A stretch of 64,000 nt of DNA from Candidatus Aenigmatarchaeota archaeon. GTDB lineage: Archaea; Aenigmatarchaeota; Aenigmatarchaeia; CG10238-14; SCSR01. The DNA lies in the NCBI GenBank assembly GCA_014238095.1, contig JABABT010000025.1:39460-103459 (forward strand). Direction: 5' to 3'. Numbering within the stretch: the first letter of the stretch is position 1; every line of letters begins with the position of its first letter. The position numbers were made by a program, and so were the translations under genes. Below the pieces are notes generated by a model. That model was not told the origin of the DNA. It was given only the letters and a program-made list of their open reading frames with translations, and searched no databases. Below, in pieces: positions 18,433-46,315 of the stretch.

Positions 18433-18525
18433 AATAATTATATTTATTTTATATATAATTATATTTATTTTATATATAATTAATTTATTAAACTAATAAA
18501 ATAATTCATAATTGAGCCCAAGTAG

Positions 18526-18627
18526 TTGAGCCTGGTTAAAACGCCGCGCTCATAGTCTCTATGAGCTTCGACGCAAGGATGAGATAAGAAACGCGGAGGT
18601 CCGGGAGTTCAAATCTCCCCTTGGGCA
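18526..18627 (+). tRNA. tRNA(CAU) with ~36-nt intron after the anticodon loop (Met elongator or Ile2)
   Basis: Acceptor GCCCAAG/CTTGGGC, anticodon stem CCGCG/CGCGG, loop CTCATAG with anticodon CAT, T-arm GGGAG-TTCAAAT-CTCCC. Inserted sequence GTCTCTATGAGCTTCGACGCAAGGATGAGATAAGAA begins with a segment complementary to the anticodon loop (BHB-like). CCA is not encoded. Confidence 0.75.
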
Positions 18628-21192: not shown

Positions 21193-21203
21193 GTGACCGC
21201 CAA

Positions 21204-22758
<1,555 letters not shown>

Positions 22759-29898: not shown

Positions 29899-33155
<3,257 letters not shown>

Positions 33156-37226: not shown

Positions 37227-38081
37227 TTAACCAATAAATTTGGCTTTTACTTTATTTTTATCAATTTCAATTATAGAAACTTGTCCATTATGACCAAATC
37301 CCGATGCTATTACTGAAGTATTTCCAATCATTTTCAATCCTCTATGTTCATGAAAATGAGAACAAACACAAAGAAGTGGTTTATATTTTTTTATTATATT
37401 TAATGTTACTTTTTCACCATAATTTTTTTTCATTGATTCTAAATAATCAAATGTTTTATATGGTGGGTCATGTGTTACAAATATAAATTTTCTATTATTT
37501 TTAGATTTTTCAAAAATTTTTTCAATATTATTTTTTAATTCATTTCTAACTTTAATAATATTTTTTTTATCAATTACTCCAATATTTTTATATAAATATT
37601 CTTTAAAAGAACTTCCTCTATATCCACCAAAACCAGCTATTTGGAATCCTTTAATATTAATAATATTATTATGAATGAATTTCATATTATGTCCAGAATT
37701 TTTATCAAGTAAAAAATCATTTGGTTTATAATTTGTTTGTAATTCTGTTACAGAATCCCAATTTCCATGTATATAATATATTGGTGTTTTTAATTTCTTT
37801 AAAGTAGAAAATATTTTTTCATTATTTTTTTTTGATAATATACTCCATTTTTTAAATTTCTTTTCTGAATCTATTTGAATTTTATATGGCCATAATTCAG
37901 GAATAGGTCCAAATAATTCTACAAGTTTAAATTCATACTTTCTTGATTCATCTGTAAAATCACCACCTGTAAAATCACCTGAAATTAATACAGCATCTGG
38001 TTTTTCATTTTTTATTAAATTCAAAATTTCTTTTTTTAATTTACCATGTAAACAACCAATAGCTATTAATTTTAATGACAT
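37227..38081 (-). CDS. calcineurin-like metallophosphoesterase (motif I DxH replaced by CLH)
   Basis: Motifs GCLHG, ISGDFTGGDF, IHGNWD, VTHDPP, CSHFHEHRG in canonical MPE order. Confidence 0.7.
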   Translation of the reverse strand: MSLKLIAIGCLHGKLKKEILNLIKNEKPDAVLISGDFTGGDFTDESRKYEFKLVELFGPIPELWPYKIQIDSEKKFKKWSILSKKNNEKIFSTLKKLKTPIYYIHGNWDSVTELQTNYKPNDFLLDKNSGHNMKFIHNNIINIKGFQIAGFGGYRGSSFKEYLYKNIGVIDKKNIIKVRNELKNNIEKIFEKSKNNRKFIFVTHDPPYKTFDYLESMKKNYGEKVTLNIIKKYKPLLCVCSHFHEHRGLKMIGNTSVIASGFGHNGQVSIIEIDKNKVKAKFIG

Positions 38082-38089
38082 AATAAAAA

Positions 38090-39289
38090 TTAGTTTTTCT
38101 TATTAAAATTTTTTGCTAATTCATGAATCAATTTTCTTACATTTTCCCGCATATCATTTATTTCTTTTTCAGATATTTTATGTAATTTATGTTCTTTAGA
38201 AAGTTTCTTCAATATTTCTATTCTATCCCAAATTTCTAAATAATATGGTTCTATAATTTTAGAATCAATAAAATATTTTTTAAATCCATCTTTTAATGAA
38301 ATATTTATTTTCTTTAAAACTACTTCATTATCTGTATCTTCTGGTAAATTAATTATTTTTTTCAAAGAAGTTATAATGGCCTTTTCCATAACATTATGTG
38401 TTCTATCTAAAATTTTTTCCTTTTTTCTCATTTCCAATGCATTTAATAAATTAAACATTTTATCAATGTATTTTTCTGATTTTTCTAACCATTCATCTAC
38501 AAAAGATCCTGAAACATTTATAATTTTTTTATGTTCTATTTCTTTTCTTATATTTATAATTTCTTTTAACCATTCTGCATATTCTGGTTCAAGTATACCA
38601 GAATCTACTAAATATTTTTTAACTTCTTCATATGCTTTATTAGGAACAGGTGGTTCAAATCCCATAAACATTAAAACAGCTTGTGAAGTGTTTAACATTG
38701 CATAATAAGAATCTTCAGCAAGCATTAACAATTTAACTGTTTTTGCACGCATAATTTTTTTTGGAGCACTTTCCATATAACTTTCTATTGCTTCTCTAGT
38801 TGATGGAATTTTACCCATATTTAAAAGTTTTTTAATCGGTTCAAAAAAACCAGTATCATATATAGGAATTCCTTCTTTAATAAAATTATAAATTATTGGA
38901 TGAGCTACTCTAGCATAATCCCAAAATTCTGTAAGAGTATATGTTGGTTGAACAGATAACAAATTAATTTTTTCTGATTTTCCATTTGGTAATTTTTTAT
39001 TAATTTTTGATTCAGGTATTTTTTCAGAAATATTTTCTAAATCTTCATCAATTTTATTTTTAATATCTTCATTCATTTCCATTGAAGTATCATCAATTAT
39101 AACAAAAACATCTATATCACTAATTTCTTTAAATTCTTTTCTAGCAACAGAACCCATCATTACAATTGCTTTAATTTTATTACCATATTTTTTTAAAACT
39201 TCTTTTGAGAATTTTTTAACAATTTCAATTCTTCTATCTATAGATTTTGAAACTTCTTTAGATTTTAATTCATTCTTTTTTTTTGGCAT
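38090..39289 (-). CDS. Pol-beta superfamily nucleotidyltransferase with long helical C-terminal domain (paralog 1)
   Basis: MMGSVARKEFKEISDIDVFVIIDD = GS-x10-DxD NTase core. The C-terminal ~250 aa is alpha-helical. Shares the PTYTLTEFWDY..HP.IYNF...G.PIYDTGF block with the adjacent gene. Confidence 0.6.
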   Translation of the reverse strand: MPKKKNELKSKEVSKSIDRRIEIVKKFSKEVLKKYGNKIKAIVMMGSVARKEFKEISDIDVFVIIDDTSMEMNEDIKNKIDEDLENISEKIPESKINKKLPNGKSEKINLLSVQPTYTLTEFWDYARVAHPIIYNFIKEGIPIYDTGFFEPIKKLLNMGKIPSTREAIESYMESAPKKIMRAKTVKLLMLAEDSYYAMLNTSQAVLMFMGFEPPVPNKAYEEVKKYLVDSGILEPEYAEWLKEIINIRKEIEHKKIINVSGSFVDEWLEKSEKYIDKMFNLLNALEMRKKEKILDRTHNVMEKAIITSLKKIINLPEDTDNEVVLKKINISLKDGFKKYFIDSKIIEPYYLEIWDRIEILKKLSKEHKLHKISEKEINDMRENVRKLIHELAKNFNKKN

Positions 39290-40150
39290 TTATTCATCTT
39301 CCTTTGGTAAATCTTCTCCAAGAACTTCTTTAGGAATTAATTTAATAAATCTATCAATTATTTCACGTGATAATTTCAAAGATTTTTCTAAATAAACTGA
39401 ATTTACATCTTTTATTATTTTATGATCAATATCTTTCCACATTTTATTCATATCTTTAAATTTTTTAACCCATTCTTTTTCAAGTTTTTTTTCACTTACA
39501 AATTTTTCTAAAAATTTTGGTATATCTTTGAAATCTGGTTGTTCTTTATAATGATGCATAACAGATGCTTGAATTATATCACTTGCACAATATCTTAATT
39601 CAAATATCATAGATTTCATATCAATTTTTACTTTTCTATATCTAGCTTCTGCAGCATGTGCCCTTATTGATATTGTTTCTTCGCTTGGTGGTAGAAGACC
39701 CATTTTTAACATTCTTTGTACTGGTTTAATAAAACCACTATCATAAATTGGAAGTCCGTATCTTAGAAAATTAACCAATTCTGGAGATCCTATTTTAATC
39801 CAGTGCCAAAATTCTGTTAATGGGGTTGTTTGAACATGAACATCTTTCAAATTATGAGCAATTAAAAGTATATTATGTTGAACTTTTTCAATATCTTCAG
39901 ATCCTTTAGTAGAAGTATCATCTAAAACTACCCAAACATCAGCATCACTTGTCTTAATAGCATCTCCTCTTACAATTGAACCAAATAAAAGAACTGATTT
40001 TATTACATCTCCATATTGTTTACGAGCTTCATTTGTGAATTTTACAACCCTTTTCATAACTTCTTCCTTATTCATAAAACTATCTGACTTAATATTTGGT
40101 TTTATTATTGATGTATCTTTTAATTCTTCCTCTAATTTATCAAAAACCAT
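39290..40150 (-). CDS. Pol-beta superfamily nucleotidyltransferase with helical C-terminal domain (paralog 2)
   Basis: LLFGSIVRGDAIKTSDADVWVVLDD NTase core. TPLTEFWHW..SPELVNFLRYGLPIYDSGF is paralogous to 38090-39289. Adjacent with a 0-nt gap. Confidence 0.6.
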   Translation of the reverse strand: MVFDKLEEELKDTSIIKPNIKSDSFMNKEEVMKRVVKFTNEARKQYGDVIKSVLLFGSIVRGDAIKTSDADVWVVLDDTSTKGSEDIEKVQHNILLIAHNLKDVHVQTTPLTEFWHWIKIGSPELVNFLRYGLPIYDSGFIKPVQRMLKMGLLPPSEETISIRAHAAEARYRKVKIDMKSMIFELRYCASDIIQASVMHHYKEQPDFKDIPKFLEKFVSEKKLEKEWVKKFKDMNKMWKDIDHKIIKDVNSVYLEKSLKLSREIIDRFIKLIPKEVLGEDLPKEDE

Positions 40151-40228: not shown

Positions 40229-40939
40229 ATGAAAGCTGTCATTTTATCTGCTGGTTTAAGTATTAGAATGAGGGAAATTAAAGGTATTGATGAACAAAAA
40301 ACTATGATAAAATATTCTGAAAAACCACTTCTACAAAGAAATATAGAAATTATTAGAGATAATGGTATAAAGGATATAATTATTGTAGTTAATTATATGA
40401 AAAATGTTATTAAAAATTATTTTGGAAATGGGGAAAAATTTAATGTTAATATTGAATATGTTGAACAAGAAAATCCTAAAAAAGGTACAGCAAATGCCGT
40501 ATTATGTGTTGAAAGTAAAATAAATAATAATTTTCTTCTAATTTATGGGGATAATGTTTTTGATTCTAAAATTATTAGTAATATATTAAAAATTAATGAT
40601 TGTGATGGTGTATTATGTGTTAAAAATCTTGAAAATCCAAAAAATTTTGGTGTTATTAAAACTGATGGGGAAAATGTGAAGGAAATAATTGAAAAACCGG
40701 AAAAAATAATAAGTAATCTTGCATTAACGGGTATTTTTATTTTACCTATAGAAATATTTGAATCTATTAAAAAAACTAAAATATCAAAACGTGGTGAATA
40801 TGAACTTCCAGAATCAATTCAAATTTTGATTAATGAAGGTTTTAAATTTAAATTTATTGAAATTGATAATTATTGGTTTGATCCAAGAAATGAAGAAGAA
40901 ATTAATGAAATAAATTTATTATTAAAATTAAATCATTAA
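40229..40939 (+). CDS. sugar-phosphate nucleotidyltransferase (NTP_transferase/GlmU-RmlA-like)
   Basis: MKAVILSAGLSIRM N-terminal G-rich loop and a LIYGDNVFD motif. Confidence 0.6.
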   Translation: MKAVILSAGLSIRMREIKGIDEQKTMIKYSEKPLLQRNIEIIRDNGIKDIIIVVNYMKNVIKNYFGNGEKFNVNIEYVEQENPKKGTANAVLCVESKINNNFLLIYGDNVFDSKIISNILKINDCDGVLCVKNLENPKNFGVIKTDGENVKEIIEKPEKIISNLALTGIFILPIEIFESIKKTKISKRGEYELPESIQILINEGFKFKFIEIDNYWFDPRNEEEINEINLLLKLNH

Positions 40940-41090: not shown

Positions 41091-43202
41091 TTAAGTTAAT
41101 TCTGATTTTTTAAATTCTTCTGGTCTCTTACCTTTATCTAATGCCGATTTACTTAAGAAAGTATGTTCTTCTTCTGGTACTGCAAGTAATCCTTTTAATG
41201 GGTCCCAATAATGTTCATGCATTGTTTCTAATTGTTTTTCAACAGAATATATTCCATCTGAAGAAACTCCAAAAAATTTCAATGGAAGATTTTCTGGTAA
41301 TGTATCTTTCTTTAATTGTTCCACTATTAACCTAATTGAAATAACAGATTGACCTAAAAATTCCCCAGGTAATTTACCTCCTCCTCTTTCAAACATAATT
41401 ATACCTTTATTTTCTCCCATACCATAACCTTTTTTTCTCATATTATATGCATATACATAAATCCATCTTTGTGCTTCACTACCAACATCAATTGTATCAT
41501 GACCAGGTGCATAAGTTTTAGGATTACCAACATGAAGTCCATAAAAATCTTTTAAAGCATCATCATCTAAAGATTTAAATTCATCTAATGGATTCAATCC
41601 ATTATGTAGATAATGTTCAATATCAACCCAACCTAAAATATATTTAGTATTATGAACTGATTTAAAAGCTTTAATTAATTTATGAATATCTTTTAAATGA
41701 ATAATTCTTTGTAAACCTTCCATTTGTTCTCCAAGTGGATCTGGATTTTCAAATGTTATGAATATTTTAAGTTGATTTATTTTTTCTAAAGCTGTTTTCT
41801 TATAGAAAGAATCAAGTTTTTGATATTTTAAATCTTCATCTCCAAAATTTTCTACTCTATGATGAATAAATTCAGTTAAATTTGGTCTTTCAAAATGACC
41901 CATAATGTAACGAGCAGCTACCATTGCAACTATATTTGGCATAAGATTAACAATACCACGTTTTTCATCCCAAAGTTTTCTTTCATTATCTCCTGTGTTT
42001 GATATTTTCCAATCTTGTTCTAAATTCTCCATTGATTTACCTTTAAAATATAAATTCCATAATGGTTCTTTAGTATTATCTTTCTGATATTCTAAATATT
42101 TAGCAATTATAGCATATGCAAAATCTTCTTTTTCTATTACACCTCTTGATTTTCTTGTTTGTGTTAAATCAAGCCATTTATCAAACATAAAATCATTAAT
42201 TACATTAACAATTTCATTATCATCAAACTCTGATTCAAAATAATCATTAACCATTTCATTAATGGATAAAGATTGAAATGATTCAATTTTACTATGATTT
42301 ATATTTGATAAATTTTCTTGTTCTTGTTTAAGTTTTTGTATTCTTTCATTTAACTCTTTATAACTTATTTCTCTTTTAGATATGTTTTTATCTGTTATAT
42401 ATTCTTCATCTATTTTTTGTGGTTTTTGATTTTCAATTTGTAATTGATTAGAAATTTCTTTTAATCTTTTATTATTTTTTTCTATTATTTCTCTATGTTT
42501 CTTAATATATTTTTCTAACTTTTCTATAATTTTTCTTGATTTTTTTTCTTTATCAATTTCTTTTTCTTGAAATGCATGTACAATTAATTGCTTTATTAAA
42601 TGTCTTTTATCCCATGGAGCAAAACCTGCAACTTCTGCAAAAAGATATTTTAAAATAGTTTTTTGAAACCAAGATTTAAGTTTTTTATTTTCATTTAATA
42701 ATTTTTCCCAATTTTCAAAACCTCTGAAATCATTTTGAATTTGTCCCTGATATTTATATCTCTCTGCAAGAAGTCCAATTGGATGAATATTAGAAACATG
42801 AAAATTTATATATTCTGGTTTATATTTTGTGTAATCTTTATCTTTTTGATTTGGTTGTCCTTTATTTTTAATAAAATAATCATAAATACCATCAAGATAT
42901 TGATGAAGTCTAATATGAGATTGTTTCCAAATAACTTCTATTCCACTTTCCCATGCCATTAATGAATTAATTTCTCCATGTGCACCCCATCTTATATTAA
43001 GATCTTCTGTAACTTGTCTTATTCTTTCTAAAACATCTGGTTCAACAAATTCAGAAGTATTTTCAAAATCAACTTGAATATAACTTGCACCAGTAGTTGC
43101 AGCTGTTGCTATTTTTTGTGCTACTCCAAGTAGTCCTTTATCTTGAGCAATTTTATGCCAACCACTTGTAATTCCAACTTCATAATTTTCTCCATATCCC
43201 AT
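41091..43202 (-). CDS. large hypothetical protein (703 aa) with central K/E-rich coiled coil and paired GYGEN/GYGMGEN motifs
   Basis: Long ORF with strong coding character. No recognisable catalytic or NTP-binding motif. Confidence 0.6.
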   Translation of the reverse strand: MGYGENYEVGITSGWHKIAQDKGLLGVAQKIATAATTGASYIQVDFENTSEFVEPDVLERIRQVTEDLNIRWGAHGEINSLMAWESGIEVIWKQSHIRLHQYLDGIYDYFIKNKGQPNQKDKDYTKYKPEYINFHVSNIHPIGLLAERYKYQGQIQNDFRGFENWEKLLNENKKLKSWFQKTILKYLFAEVAGFAPWDKRHLIKQLIVHAFQEKEIDKEKKSRKIIEKLEKYIKKHREIIEKNNKRLKEISNQLQIENQKPQKIDEEYITDKNISKREISYKELNERIQKLKQEQENLSNINHSKIESFQSLSINEMVNDYFESEFDDNEIVNVINDFMFDKWLDLTQTRKSRGVIEKEDFAYAIIAKYLEYQKDNTKEPLWNLYFKGKSMENLEQDWKISNTGDNERKLWDEKRGIVNLMPNIVAMVAARYIMGHFERPNLTEFIHHRVENFGDEDLKYQKLDSFYKKTALEKINQLKIFITFENPDPLGEQMEGLQRIIHLKDIHKLIKAFKSVHNTKYILGWVDIEHYLHNGLNPLDEFKSLDDDALKDFYGLHVGNPKTYAPGHDTIDVGSEAQRWIYVYAYNMRKKGYGMGENKGIIMFERGGGKLPGEFLGQSVISIRLIVEQLKKDTLPENLPLKFFGVSSDGIYSVEKQLETMHEHYWDPLKGLLAVPEEEHTFLSKSALDKGKRPEEFKKSELT

Positions 43203-43206
43203 ATTA

Positions 43207-44967
43207 TCACTTCATATTCATTGCAGCTGATTTGAAATAACCAACTGCTGGACCATAAAAATTTTGTGCAATTGTTTTCATTGTTATTGAAGTTATTCTA
43301 TCCATAAATGTTGAATCATATGGTCCACTTCTTGAAAATCTTATATTATTTTGTTTCCAACTTCTATTTGTCATTTGTTTTGGATTTATCAAATTATTTG
43401 GTTTTTGTTTTTTATTATTCATACCATAAAGATTTGGATACTCATCTTCCTTAATTATATCTTCAATTTTCTTTCCCTCTTCAGTGTCTCCAATTATATC
43501 AGTAATATGATTTTTTAGTTCTTTTTCTTGTAAAATTTTTTCTAATTCACGAATAATCATTACATTTTGTGTGTCAAAACATGCAACAAATGGATGATCA
43601 GGAAAACTACCAATAATAAAAGTTTCACCTTCTTTACCTGTTGGTGATCTTGTTACAACTCTAAATGTCTCAACTTCAAATGTAATAAAATAAGGACTTG
43701 GTACCCAATCCCATCTATTATATTCTTTGAATTTTTCTTCTAGATTCTTTCTAGCCTGCATTATATCTACCACATTAAGAGAAGATTTGTATTTATATTT
43801 TCCTTGATAATGTTTAACAAGTTTATCTGTTAAGAACATTACCCAATCATCAACTGGTTCTATTCCAGATGGAAATGTTGAAATAGTTTCATATTTTCCA
43901 CTAACATCAGAATTATTTTTCATTATTTCTTTCAAATTTTCTTTTAACATTTTAGGTAAATTTGATTTCATTAAAAGTTGTTTCTCTTCATATATTTGTA
44001 TTGGAGGTTTATCAAATCCTGGAGGATTAAAACTTCTCCATAACCAATATTCAGCCATATCAATTGAAACTGCTTGTGTTGAAGGTCTCCACCAATTAAA
44101 ACTATTAAGAATTGATGCTCCATCTTCTGTTTCACCAAATTCATGAATCATTTTATGTCTAAGTACAAATGGTCTAACCATTCTTCTATATTCCTTAATT
44201 GATTTTTTTCTTGATGCAACAAGTTCTTTCAAATGATGATATCTACTCATAACAGTTTCTTTAAATCTTTTTTTCCATTGTTGATAAATTTTATTTTTTG
44301 TTGAAAGTACAACACCTTCTGATTGAGAAAATTGATATTTTTCTGCTATTTTATTTGGATCTAAATCATTATCATCAAGACGCATAAAATCAACAATTAT
44401 TGTTGGCCATCTTGGTGCTATTAATTTTAATGCAACACCTTCACCAGTATGAACATCAACATGATCAATGAAAAGTGATTTCAAAGTTTGATTATGTCTT
44501 TTTTCTTCTTCTTTATTTTTTGATTTGGATGCTTTTTCTATTTCTTCAAAATAATGCATATATTCTTTATATCTTCTTATATCATGAGACAAAAGTTCAT
44601 AATCAGATATTGAAGATTGAATACTTGCAAGAGACTGTTTAATTTGTTGTTCCATATTTTGTTTTTGTTGTACAGTTACCTGATAATATTGTGAATGTAT
44701 AGGTGAAATTTCAATTCTTTCTTGAATTTTATCTACATGAAATCCTTGTTTTCTCATATTCCATAAAAATCCCATAAAAATATCATTACCTTTTCCTAAA
44801 TTTGTATCAATAAATATTTGTGTTCTTGCATTTGGTGGACCAATATGCGCAATTTCACCTGGAACAAATCCTTTAATTGGACCATCTCCAGGACCCTTAC
44901 CAAGTATAGATGGTAGTCCTTCACTACCTTTTTTATCATCTGAATATTTTCCACTTACAAAACTCAT
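43207..44967 (-). CDS. large hypothetical protein (~586 aa from MSFVSGKY; track extends to 45042)
   Basis: Long ORF whose proposed start overlaps the stop of the upstream 57-aa ORF by 4 nt (ATGA). No recognisable domain. Confidence 0.55.
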   Translation of the reverse strand: MSFVSGKYSDDKKGSEGLPSILGKGPGDGPIKGFVPGEIAHIGPPNARTQIFIDTNLGKGNDIFMGFLWNMRKQGFHVDKIQERIEISPIHSQYYQVTVQQKQNMEQQIKQSLASIQSSISDYELLSHDIRRYKEYMHYFEEIEKASKSKNKEEEKRHNQTLKSLFIDHVDVHTGEGVALKLIAPRWPTIIVDFMRLDDNDLDPNKIAEKYQFSQSEGVVLSTKNKIYQQWKKRFKETVMSRYHHLKELVASRKKSIKEYRRMVRPFVLRHKMIHEFGETEDGASILNSFNWWRPSTQAVSIDMAEYWLWRSFNPPGFDKPPIQIYEEKQLLMKSNLPKMLKENLKEIMKNNSDVSGKYETISTFPSGIEPVDDWVMFLTDKLVKHYQGKYKYKSSLNVVDIMQARKNLEEKFKEYNRWDWVPSPYFITFEVETFRVVTRSPTGKEGETFIIGSFPDHPFVACFDTQNVMIIRELEKILQEKELKNHITDIIGDTEEGKKIEDIIKEDEYPNLYGMNNKKQKPNNLINPKQMTNRSWKQNNIRFSRSGPYDSTFMDRITSITMKTIAQNFYGPAVGYFKSAAMNMK

Positions 44968-45137
44968 GTAAACACCAAAATACCTATACCTAATGCTACC
45001 ATAATGAAACCAATTAATATTCCAGTATATGAAAATTGCCATGATTGATATTCAGATACTTGAGGAAATATTAAAACCATACCAAGTCCTCCAAGTATTA
45101 ATAGTCCTCCAATTGTTGCTGTTATTAAATCTGGCAT
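44964..45137 (-). CDS. small 2-TM membrane peptide (MPDLITATIGGLLILGGLGMVLIF...), hand-derived
   Basis: 57-aa ORF found by hand in a frame different from the track ORF. Two hydrophobic helices, translationally coupled to the next gene. Confidence 0.4.
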   Translation of the reverse strand: MPDLITATIGGLLILGGLGMVLIFPQVSEYQSWQFSYTGILIGFIMVALGIGILVFT

Positions 45138-45207: not shown

Positions 45208-45735
45208 ATGCCTATATTCGCAAAAAACAAAATTACTATTGAAGAGGATTGTTTACTACCATCTCCAAAAATTTGGATGAGTTATTCTGGACCAAACCCA
45301 CATAAGGCTTATGGTAAAATAACAGAAATTTTAAAAAATAATTTAAAATTTAAAAATGAAAATATTCAAGAAAGAGAATTTAAATGGGATAGATCAAATG
45401 TAGTAGAAAAATTTTCTGGTTCTATTGAAGCTTTTAAAGATTTTGATAAATTCACTTACATAATGGCATTTATAGATTTTAGTGGAAATGTAAAACCTAG
45501 TAAAGAGTTTGGGAAAGTTGGTGACTTAAAAGTTGAAATTGATGGTTATATTAGAACAGATTATCCACAAGATACAGTTTGGGAAAGAAGTCTTTTTTAC
45601 GAAGTTATTAGATCTTTTTGGCATAAATTTTTCTATCAAAAAGAAAGATATGCTTTCAAGGAAAGATGTCGTAATATATTATTAGTTGTTCAAAAAGAAT
45701 TGAAAACTTATTTTGATATATTACCAAAGAGTTGA
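45208..45735 (+). CDS. hypothetical protein, paralog A of a tandem pair
   Basis: Shares GPNP, FKWD/FRWD and LKVEIDGYIRTD/LKIEIHGFIETD blocks with the next gene. Confidence 0.5.
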   Translation: MPIFAKNKITIEEDCLLPSPKIWMSYSGPNPHKAYGKITEILKNNLKFKNENIQEREFKWDRSNVVEKFSGSIEAFKDFDKFTYIMAFIDFSGNVKPSKEFGKVGDLKVEIDGYIRTDYPQDTVWERSLFYEVIRSFWHKFFYQKERYAFKERCRNILLVVQKELKTYFDILPKS

Positions 45736-45739
45736 TTGA

Positions 45740-46315
45740 ATGCCAGTTGCAGATTGGAAATCATATCATTTTCCTACAAAAATTAGAGATGAGATACCTA
45801 AAAATAGAGATGAAATTGTAATAGAATATAAAGGACCTAATCCAATAAAAATTTATAAAAATCTTACAAACATGTGTAAAAGAATATGGGAAGTTAAAGG
45901 AACTCAAATGTATGAACCTGATTTTAGATGGGATACTACATCAGATCCTCATGCTTTCTTTTTCCAAATTTATGTACAAAAGGGTATGGATAAATTTACT
46001 AAATATAGAGTTGACATAAAAATGAAAGGTTCCCAACCAAATGATCCTAAAAATAATGGTGAATTAAAAATTGAAATACATGGATTTATAGAAACAGATT
46101 TTAGTAGTTTTCTTGGAGATAAATTTGGAACTCCTGAACAAAAACTGAAAGCTGGTGTTATGAATATTATTTGGCCTATGATGTATTATCCATTTATGAA
46201 AGGTTATTATAATCCACTTAGAAGAAGATATTTTATTTATCATAGAAGAAGAATTGAAAGACTTGCAAATGAAATGAGGGCCATGCTTAATATACCTCTA
46301 AAACCATTATCATAA
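45740..46315 (+). CDS. hypothetical protein, paralog B of a tandem pair
   Basis: Paralogous to 45208-45735. C-terminal basic tail RRRYFIYHRRRIERL. Confidence 0.5.
   Translation: MPVADWKSYHFPTKIRDEIPKNRDEIVIEYKGPNPIKIYKNLTNMCKRIWEVKGTQMYEPDFRWDTTSDPHAFFFQIYVQKGMDKFTKYRVDIKMKGSQPNDPKNNGELKIEIHGFIETDFSSFLGDKFGTPEQKLKAGVMNIIWPMMYYPFMKGYYNPLRRRYFIYHRRRIERLANEMRAMLNIPLKPLS

Follow-up and report, generated by a model that had tools for sequence, protein, structure and literature searches.

A tandem pair of nucleotidyltransferase-HEPN fusion proteins conserved across Aenigmatarchaeota, a candidate heterodimeric nucleotidyltransferase with a probable core cellular role

The 64,000-nt stretch of Candidatus Aenigmatarchaeota archaeon DNA analysed here (contig JABABT010000025.1, positions 39,460 to 103,459; hereafter the window, with positions counted from its first letter) carries two adjacent minus-strand genes, NTase-A (286 aa) and NTase-B (399 aa), each of which encodes a minimal nucleotidyltransferase (MNT) joined in one chain to a genuine HEPN domain. 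The two form an ancient, vertically inherited pair of paralogs, and the best explanation for them, to which a probability of about 0.5 is assigned, is that they constitute a conserved heterodimeric nucleotidyltransferase resembling kanamycin nucleotidyltransferase (KNTase), with a core cellular function rather than a role as a toxin-antitoxin system. KNTase is a dimer in which the active sites are shared between subunits. In a similar manner, A and B would form a heterodimer built like the kanamycin nucleotidyltransferase ANT(4'), each MNT active site being completed by the partner's helical (HEPN) domain. The core chemistry would be nucleotidyl transfer, and the substrate would more likely be the end of a nucleic acid (RNA) or a partner protein than a small molecule. 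Any ribonuclease (RNase) activity would be confined to, or gated through, B, because the R-x4-H motif of the HEPN domain is intact in B and degenerate (W-x4-H) in A; the B site would add or gate an RNA-cleaving step. In Aenigmatarchaeota, the complex would work with the products of the genes big611, big703 and p175/p191.

Modules that pair MNT with HEPN are among the most abundant prokaryotic toxin-antitoxin and defence modules. Across this phylum of genome-reduced archaea, these domains have been duplicated and fixed and are kept like core informational genes, and if the proposed explanation is true, the pair clearly exemplifies the recruitment of a conflict module to housekeeping. Such recruitment of toxin-antitoxin domains is likely in this case, and as a general phenomenon was noted already in 2019. 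Should the enzyme act on an RNA end or on a partner protein, it would disclose a step of RNA or protein maturation that is specific to DPANN.

Domain composition of the paralogous pair

The features of the two genes that bear on the argument are as follows.

39290..40150, minus strand: NTase-A, 286 aa, MNT plus HEPN with degenerate catalytic motif (open reading frame (ORF), Pfam, orthologs)
39917..39982, minus strand: nucleotidyltransferase (NTase) catalytic motif of A, G57 S58-x10-D69xD71...D77 D78 (sequence reading)
39422..39439, minus strand: HEPN motif position of A, W238-K-D-I-D-H243, with W in the position of the catalytic Arg (alignment of A orthologs)
38090..39289, minus strand: NTase-B, 399 aa, MNT plus HEPN with intact R-x4-H, and a helical C-terminal extension
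39089..39154, minus strand: NTase catalytic motif of B, G46 S47-x10-D58xD60...D66 D67 (sequence and alignment)
38531..38548, minus strand: HEPN R-x4-H motif of B, R248-K-E-I-E-H253 (sequence and alignment of B orthologs)
38093..38437, minus strand: B-specific C-terminal helical extension, residues 285-399 (not in A; helical in the predicted model)

An earlier, sequence-only reading of the window had described the two genes as paralogs separated by 0 nt, each with a minimal NTase core, a common block downstream of the core, and a helical tail of HEPN or KNTase type, and all of these features hold up. The TAA termination codon of A abuts the ATG initiation codon of B, creating the arrangement TAA/ATG. 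The cores read FGS-x10-DADV...LDD in A and MGS-x10-DIDV...IDD in B, and both proteins score above the Pfam cut-offs for NTP_transf_2 (35 bits for A and 36.8 bits for B, cut-off 21) and for Polbeta (31.6 and 32.5 bits, respectively, cut-off 26.9). The paralogs are 30% identical over 262 aa by BLASTP (E 1e-35), and the downstream block, T-E-F-W...P...N-F...G...Y-D-x-G-F, is invariant in the ortholog groups of both.

With regard to the helical tails, the HEPN match of A in Pfam is faint (E 0.055). The tails of A and B align with each other at an hhalign probability of 97.5%. The fold is that of HEPN, a four-helix up-and-down bundle, and two-domain matches were found to AAD(9), ANT(3'')(9), HalB and KNTase, the N-terminal domain matching KNTase at E 5e-8 in a profile search. 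In the PDB, single-sequence searches with A and B gave weak matches to the N-terminal domain of KNTase at most, and profile searches detected the NTase domain alone. The extension of approximately 115 residues at the C-terminus of B, which is absent from A, shows a weak internal repeat with the second half of the first HEPN domain (hhalign probability 60%, E 8.5e-5), and may represent part of a second, degenerate HEPN repeat.

Conservation, pairing and catalytic motifs

A scan of GTDB, with one genome per species, gave 156 matching stretches, from which 80 loci were kept, and all 80 are from Aenigmatarchaeota (DPANN group, kingdom Nanobdellati). The A orthologs of these species loci are 52-81% identical. 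Together with three other loci, the survey comprised 83 loci. Metagenomes contain hundreds of close homologs of A and B at 60-84% identity, and the named ones all belong to Aenigmarchaeota/Aenigmatarchaeota. The pair is essentially a single-copy feature, with 76 of 78 source genomes yielding one locus, and two isolates yielding two each. Measured at the same loci against the window proteins, the median identity is 62% for NTase-B and 60% for NTase-A, as compared to 81% for TFB, 58% for histone, 53% for an Obg-like GTPase, and 52% for aIF5A; purifying selection on A and B is thus stronger than on several core informational proteins. The loci are syntenic with the genes for TFB, histone and aIF5A, which adjoin the pair in the window, and no relative of the pair was found in a scan of IMG/VR viral contigs. 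Phylum-wide presence, synteny, conservation and absence from IMG/VR amount to the behaviour of a core gene, unlike that of a toxin-antitoxin or defence module.

Absence of the pair from related genomes, which would have contradicted the sequence-only reading, was not observed: the order A then B is found in every one of the 76 loci with contig room to display it, with a median gap of 3 nt. Strict adjacency of this kind bears on the possibility that A and B are independent homodimers with their own substrates, their adjacency being a tandem duplication that was never separated. Homodimerisation is characteristic of KNTase and MNT/HEPN proteins, full NTase motifs are present in both paralogs, and lone B-like genes exist in other archaea, all of which are compatible with independent function. 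However, the genes overlap or abut in 76/76 informative loci, in lineages as far apart as 52% identity, and natural single-chain fusions of B-like and A-like units exist. Two representatives, P0256 and P0326, consist of a B-like unit followed by a second family unit. In P0256 (633 aa; L084/L085 8001-9902), the B-like unit has an intact NTase motif, whereas the A-like unit that follows reads W-K-D-Y-E-H and has a decayed NTase motif, and P0326 is similar. Such loss of the NTase motif from the fused A-like unit is what is typically seen in an obligate partner subunit. The P0256 contig is archaeal but from outside Aenigmatarchaeota, with 45% GC and acidic proteins, and the neighbouring genes encode ThrRS, NurA and TFB. 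Adjacency and fusion thus lend indirect support to an A-B heterodimer, as the sequence-only reading had suggested, and independent homodimers are considered unlikely.

Fusion and abutment are not the only arrangements in the wider family. On an unrelated 1.2-Mb contig of 30% GC, A-like and long B-like genes lie approximately 700 nt apart on opposite strands (L086 5502-7310 and 8001-8828), forming a divergent pair of 275 aa (A-like) and 602 aa (B-like), the latter carrying an N-terminal extension without a known fold. On a separate contig, one lone B-like gene sits among ribosomal protein genes.

The catalytic motifs distinguish the paralogs in a consistent manner. The NTase motif GS-x10-DxD is kept in 83/83 A and 73/73 B orthologs. 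The HEPN R-x4-H motif is present in 73/73 B orthologs, with R248, K249 and H253 invariant in the B alignment; the corresponding position of A reads WKx[IVL][DE]H in 60/83 orthologs, and R-x4-H in only 1/83. The HEPN catalytic motif therefore differs systematically between the paralogs at the sequence level, being intact in B and degenerate in A. In the wider family, an exhaustive profile-free search gave 427 cluster representatives at E ≤ 0.001, most of them B-like, and a motif census was taken on 150 of the 427. At least 134 of the ~144 aligned representatives retain the NTase residues, and K249 is kept in 121/133 and H253 in 93/133. The near-universal NTase residues point to nucleotidyl transfer as the constant chemistry of the family, and the HEPN domain, judging from its motifs, has more the look of a partner domain that binds substrate or nucleotide, with the RNase-type site retained in some lineages, including the one studied here.

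Relation to known families and systems

The combination of MNT and HEPN is the signature of type VII toxin-antitoxin systems (PMC7641770, PMC13000451), raising the alternative that the pair is an ordinary, or lightly domesticated, system of this type, in which the HEPN RNase of B is silenced via AMPylation by the fused MNT and A serves as an extra antitoxin-like regulator. The retention of R-x4-H in B is in keeping with such a scheme, as are matches of the A and B NTase domains to the PADLOC models PDC-S09 and PDC-M05A. Moreover, the pair resembles both HepT/MntA and the fused toxin-antitoxins termed FhepTA, which were characterised in Shewanella in 2026 and lie on mobile elements (PMC13000451), in combining MNT with an R-x4-H HEPN domain, and resembles FhepTA (276 aa) in its N-MNT/C-HEPN order and similar size. 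In HepT and FhepTA, however, the Tyr of R-x4-H-x-Y is the required site of AMPylation (PMC13000451), and this Tyr at H+2 is absent from both paralogs: B reads I-R-K-[EK]-I-E-H-K-[EK]-[IL] (R-K-x-I-E-H-K-[EK] over the motif itself), and A reads W-K-D-I-D-H-K. Scores against the NCBIfam model MntA_antitoxin are 22.7 and 22.2 bits, where the cut-off is 60. In addition, A and B are a fixed, duplicated pair, neither on mobile elements nor patchy in distribution; they are syntenic, conserved above histone and aIF5A, absent from the viral contigs, and share an operon with proteins that are not toxin-antitoxin components, which is the opposite of what is typical for toxin-antitoxin systems. A type VII system is regarded as rather unlikely.

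Other families with a similar architecture are more distant. In ANT(4'), ANT(9) and ANT(3'')(9), a Pol-beta NTase domain is likewise followed by a HEPN-like helical domain, but the C-terminal domains of these proteins do not carry R-x4-H, and the ANTs are homodimeric resistance enzymes that are often found on mobile DNA. An assignment to ANT(4') or ANT(9) was rejected on NCBIfam scores of 17-33 bits against cut-offs of 340-500, the best being 32.6 bits (cut-off 350) in an alignment limited to the first ~60 residues. The Hailong protein HalB was rejected similarly (NCBIfam, 15.2 and 20.1 bits, cut-off 190), and the pair also differs from Hailong in that no HalA-like channel gene is present near it in the window or in related loci, and in that its context is not a defence island. 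A CD-NTase or CBASS cyclase was rejected at 18.6 bits for CBASS_cyclase_b (B alone; cut-off 200), and a PADLOC Cyclase match (E 7.8e-4) is confined to the NTase core. Searches of the locus proteins with PADLOC and PHROGs gave generic NTase-domain and metallophosphoesterase matches only, and a known defence system or a viral origin was rejected on this basis. The UPF0332 HEPN proteins (AF0298, TT1696, ST0689) are stand-alone proteins of ~125 aa, usually encoded beside a separate MNT gene, whereas the HEPN domain of the present pair is part of a fusion, occurs in two genes through duplication, and is extended.

A tandem arrangement of homologous NTase plus HEPN-like units is also found within a single protein, GlnE, suggesting a switch for protein nucleotidylylation in which one unit adds a nucleoside monophosphate and the other removes it, the target possibly being an operon partner. 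The intact NTase sites of both paralogs, the existence of tandem fusion forms, and weak Pfam matches to DUF294 (GlnD-like) agree with this idea. It is nevertheless decidedly unlikely, as no GlnE or GlnD family is significant in the Pfam or NCBIfam scans, the strict RNase-type R-x4-H of B is left unexplained, and no target has been identified.

The sequence-only reading had stated that neither protein matches the signature of the archaeal class I CCA-adding enzyme, and had named profile searches against the CD-NTase, MNT/HEPN, KNTase, Cid1/PAP and CCA-enzyme families as its checks. In Pfam and NCBIfam, the CD-NTase, MntA and ANT models stayed below threshold, and CCA-adding and poly(A) polymerase families did not come up at all. 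A related proposal is that the pair is a non-canonical enzyme for adding or repairing tRNA 3' (CCA) ends, replacing or supplementing the class I CCA enzyme. The housekeeping, translation-rich context of the locus is suggestive of such a role, as is the lack of an encoded CCA after the window tRNAs, which was checked for the gene at 18516-18627 alone. However, tRNA genes without an encoded CCA are common in archaea. The activity of some NTase toxins provides a precedent, as MenT and others act on tRNA 3' ends (PMC11162799). Neither A nor B resembles class I or class II CCA enzymes, and the neck, body and tail domains of those enzymes were not detected in either protein, making this proposal very improbable.

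The closest match to the pair in the literature is a DPANN-specific cluster, cls.004259 (prototype NEQ050), present in 36/67 DPANN genomes and described as an MNT fused to HEPN in a housekeeping context that is a priority DPANN unknown for experiments (Makarova, Wolf, Koonin 2019, PMC6393860). The fusion, the superphylum, the unusual conservation and the housekeeping neighbourhood are the same, and from the match to this published description we infer that A and B belong to a cls.004259-type family. The family would thus have been flagged earlier, but is uncharacterised, and its function as presented here is likewise one that we infer. PMC6393860 describes a single cluster in one line; new beyond it are the tandem A/B paralogy, the asymmetry of the HEPN motif (R in B, W in A), the B extension, the fusion forms and the operon partners in Aenigmatarchaeota. 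Unlike the DPANN-specific cls.004259, a B-like member is also found outside DPANN, in Aciduliprofundum boonei. NEQ050 is not mentioned in the supplement of PMC6393860, a literature search for it gave unrelated DOI strings only, and look-ups of the family's clusters named only Aboo_0131 and JGI 'UPF0332/nucleotidyltransferase'. The family listing of 2019 can now be restated as concrete hypotheses, namely that A and B form a heterodimer, that the NTase chemistry is universal, that B alone carries an RNase-type site, and that the operon supplies a defined set of partners.

Several points weigh against the heterodimeric, KNTase-like reading. A and B could each homodimerise, and the analogy with KNTase is one of fold, with the ANT models scoring far below threshold. 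Lone B-like genes occur in L087 and in A. boonei (Aboo_0131), so A is not always required. In the wider family, the R and H of R-x4-H are both kept in just 34/134 representatives, and the B-like unit of P0256 does not carry the Arg; judging from these motif losses, the role of the HEPN domain may differ between lineages. Lastly, in the window a sugar-1-phosphate nucleotidyltransferase gene on the opposite strand separates the pair from big703, making co-transcription of the pair with the upstream genes impossible here.

Neighbouring genes

The genes surrounding the pair in the window are listed below.

37227..38081, minus strand: metallophosphoesterase (MPE), 284 aa, calcineurin-like (Pfam Metallophos_3)
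40229..40939, plus strand: sugar-1-phosphate nucleotidyltransferase, GlmU/RmlA-like N-terminal domain only, inserted between big703 and NTase-A
41091..43202, minus strand: big703, xylose-isomerase/endonuclease IV (Endo IV)-like TIM barrel with a coiled-coil insertion of ~150 aa
43207..44967, minus strand: big611, probably 586 aa from M26, no family or PDB match
44964..45137, minus strand: small predicted membrane protein, 57 aa (ORF heading the operon)
45208..45735, plus strand: p175, tandem paralog of p191, divergent from the operon
45740..46315, plus strand: p191, tandem paralog of p175, divergent from the operon

The conserved partners of the pair lie upstream, not downstream. Among the 83 loci, big703 is present in 71, big611 in 58, p175 in 54, and p191 in 53. 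The gap between big611 and big703 has a median of 0 nt and is at most 57 nt in all 55 cases, and that between big703 and A has a median of 63 nt and is at most 150 nt in 48/65 cases; an insertion between big703 and A is found in 11 loci, the window among them. The pair is thus usually the 3' end of an operon with the order small membrane protein, big611, big703, A and B. Hidden Markov models (HMMs) of big611, big703, p175 and p191 found no match at the loci of more distant family members, indicating that the operon linkage is specific to Aenigmatarchaeota.

No match for big611 or big703 was found in Pfam, NCBIfam, PADLOC, PHROGs or PDB sequences, PDB profile searches with big611 and p175/p191 were empty, and p175/p191 have no Pfam matches. 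Paralogy of big611 and big703 was rejected by profile comparison, whereas p175 and p191 are paralogs (hhalign probability 100%, E 8e-44). The fold of big703 is that of a xylose-isomerase/Endo IV-like TIM barrel, to which either an Endo IV or a sugar epimerase assignment could apply; a comparison with a hand-entered E. coli Nfo sequence gave a non-significant hhalign probability (0.4%), despite correspondence of the D-x-x-H and H motifs.

The operon and the divergent p175/p191 genes suggest a multi-subunit machine. In an elaborate form of this idea, A and B would derive from a toxin-antitoxin module that was domesticated as an essential enzyme of DPANN housekeeping, and would serve as the catalytic end of a hitherto undescribed machine that processes nucleic-acid ends. 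Cleavage would fall to the HEPN domain of B, healing of the 3' end to big703, and nucleotide addition to the MNT domains, with big611 and p175/p191 providing the scaffold or specificity. This specific scheme is fairly unlikely.

A number of smaller observations concern the upstream genes. The termination codon of the small membrane protein overlaps the likely initiation codon of big611 (ATGA), and the longest big611 ORF, of 611 aa, probably overshoots the true start. ORFs of ~50 aa are found at the position of the small membrane protein in L001 and L003, and tblastn detects the protein in five loci. Near-invariant motifs in p175 orthologs (≥90%) are G-P-N-P and Y-P-Q-D-T-x-W. The inserted sugar-1-phosphate nucleotidyltransferase gene is common to the window, L004 and L006, and marks a subclade. 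In some Aenigmatarchaeota (L057, L060, L067), the A-B pair lacks big611 and big703 upstream; opposite-strand ORFs of ~590 and 448 aa precede the pair in L057 and L060, respectively, and a 449-aa ORF lies before the contig end in L067.

Downstream of B, on the same strand and after a spacing of 8 nt, is the MPE gene, which the sequence-only reading had identified as a calcineurin-like phosphoesterase with Cys in place of the Asp of motif I. This description is accurate, as the protein scores 64.8 bits against Metallophos_3 (cut-off 28.2) and reads G-C-L-H-G. Motif I is thus C-L-H for D-x-H, and motif III is G-N-W-D for G-N-H-D/E, with both substitutions also found in the two orthologs identified (L004, L005). 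The protein is a family member by fold with, from its sequence, apparently non-canonical metal-site residues, and its closest solved relative is aq_1956. The same reading had further proposed that the NTase pair and the variant MPE make and degrade a second messenger, or tail and trim RNA 3' ends. The short same-strand spacing in the window, and the unusual GCLHG and GNWD motifs kept in the two closest relatives, can be cited for this proposal. However, the neighbourhood survey gave no comparative support to either logic: the MPE gene adjoins the pair in only 2/83 loci, those of the two closest relatives, and unrelated genes for peptidase M29, a NUDIX protein, a PduO-type adenosyltransferase or TFB lie downstream elsewhere. 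The CD-NTase/CBASS cyclase score given above is also far below its cut-off. A functional link of this kind is thus extremely improbable; the MPE is a lineage-specific neighbour, not a partner of A and B, and a false lead is removed.

The window as a whole, with a GC content of ~24%, is archaeal and its gene content is housekeeping. In addition to TFB, aIF5A and histone, it includes unlinked 16S and 23S rRNA genes, three tRNAs, several aminoacyl-tRNA synthetases, deoxyhypusine synthase and enolase. The three tRNAs claimed earlier are present; their stated lack of an encoded CCA was checked, and found to be correct, for the gene at 18516-18627 (plus strand) alone. That gene is 112 nt long and probably contains an intron, scoring 52.5 bits in Rfam and being missed by ARAGORN. 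The 16S gene (21203-22758) and the 23S gene (29906-33147), both on the plus strand, lie ~7 kb apart, with a Cache-domain protein, tRNA-Ala, a P-type ATPase and other genes in the interval. The 23S match extends over 3242 nt, as compared to 2987 positions in the model, and may carry insertions or an intron.

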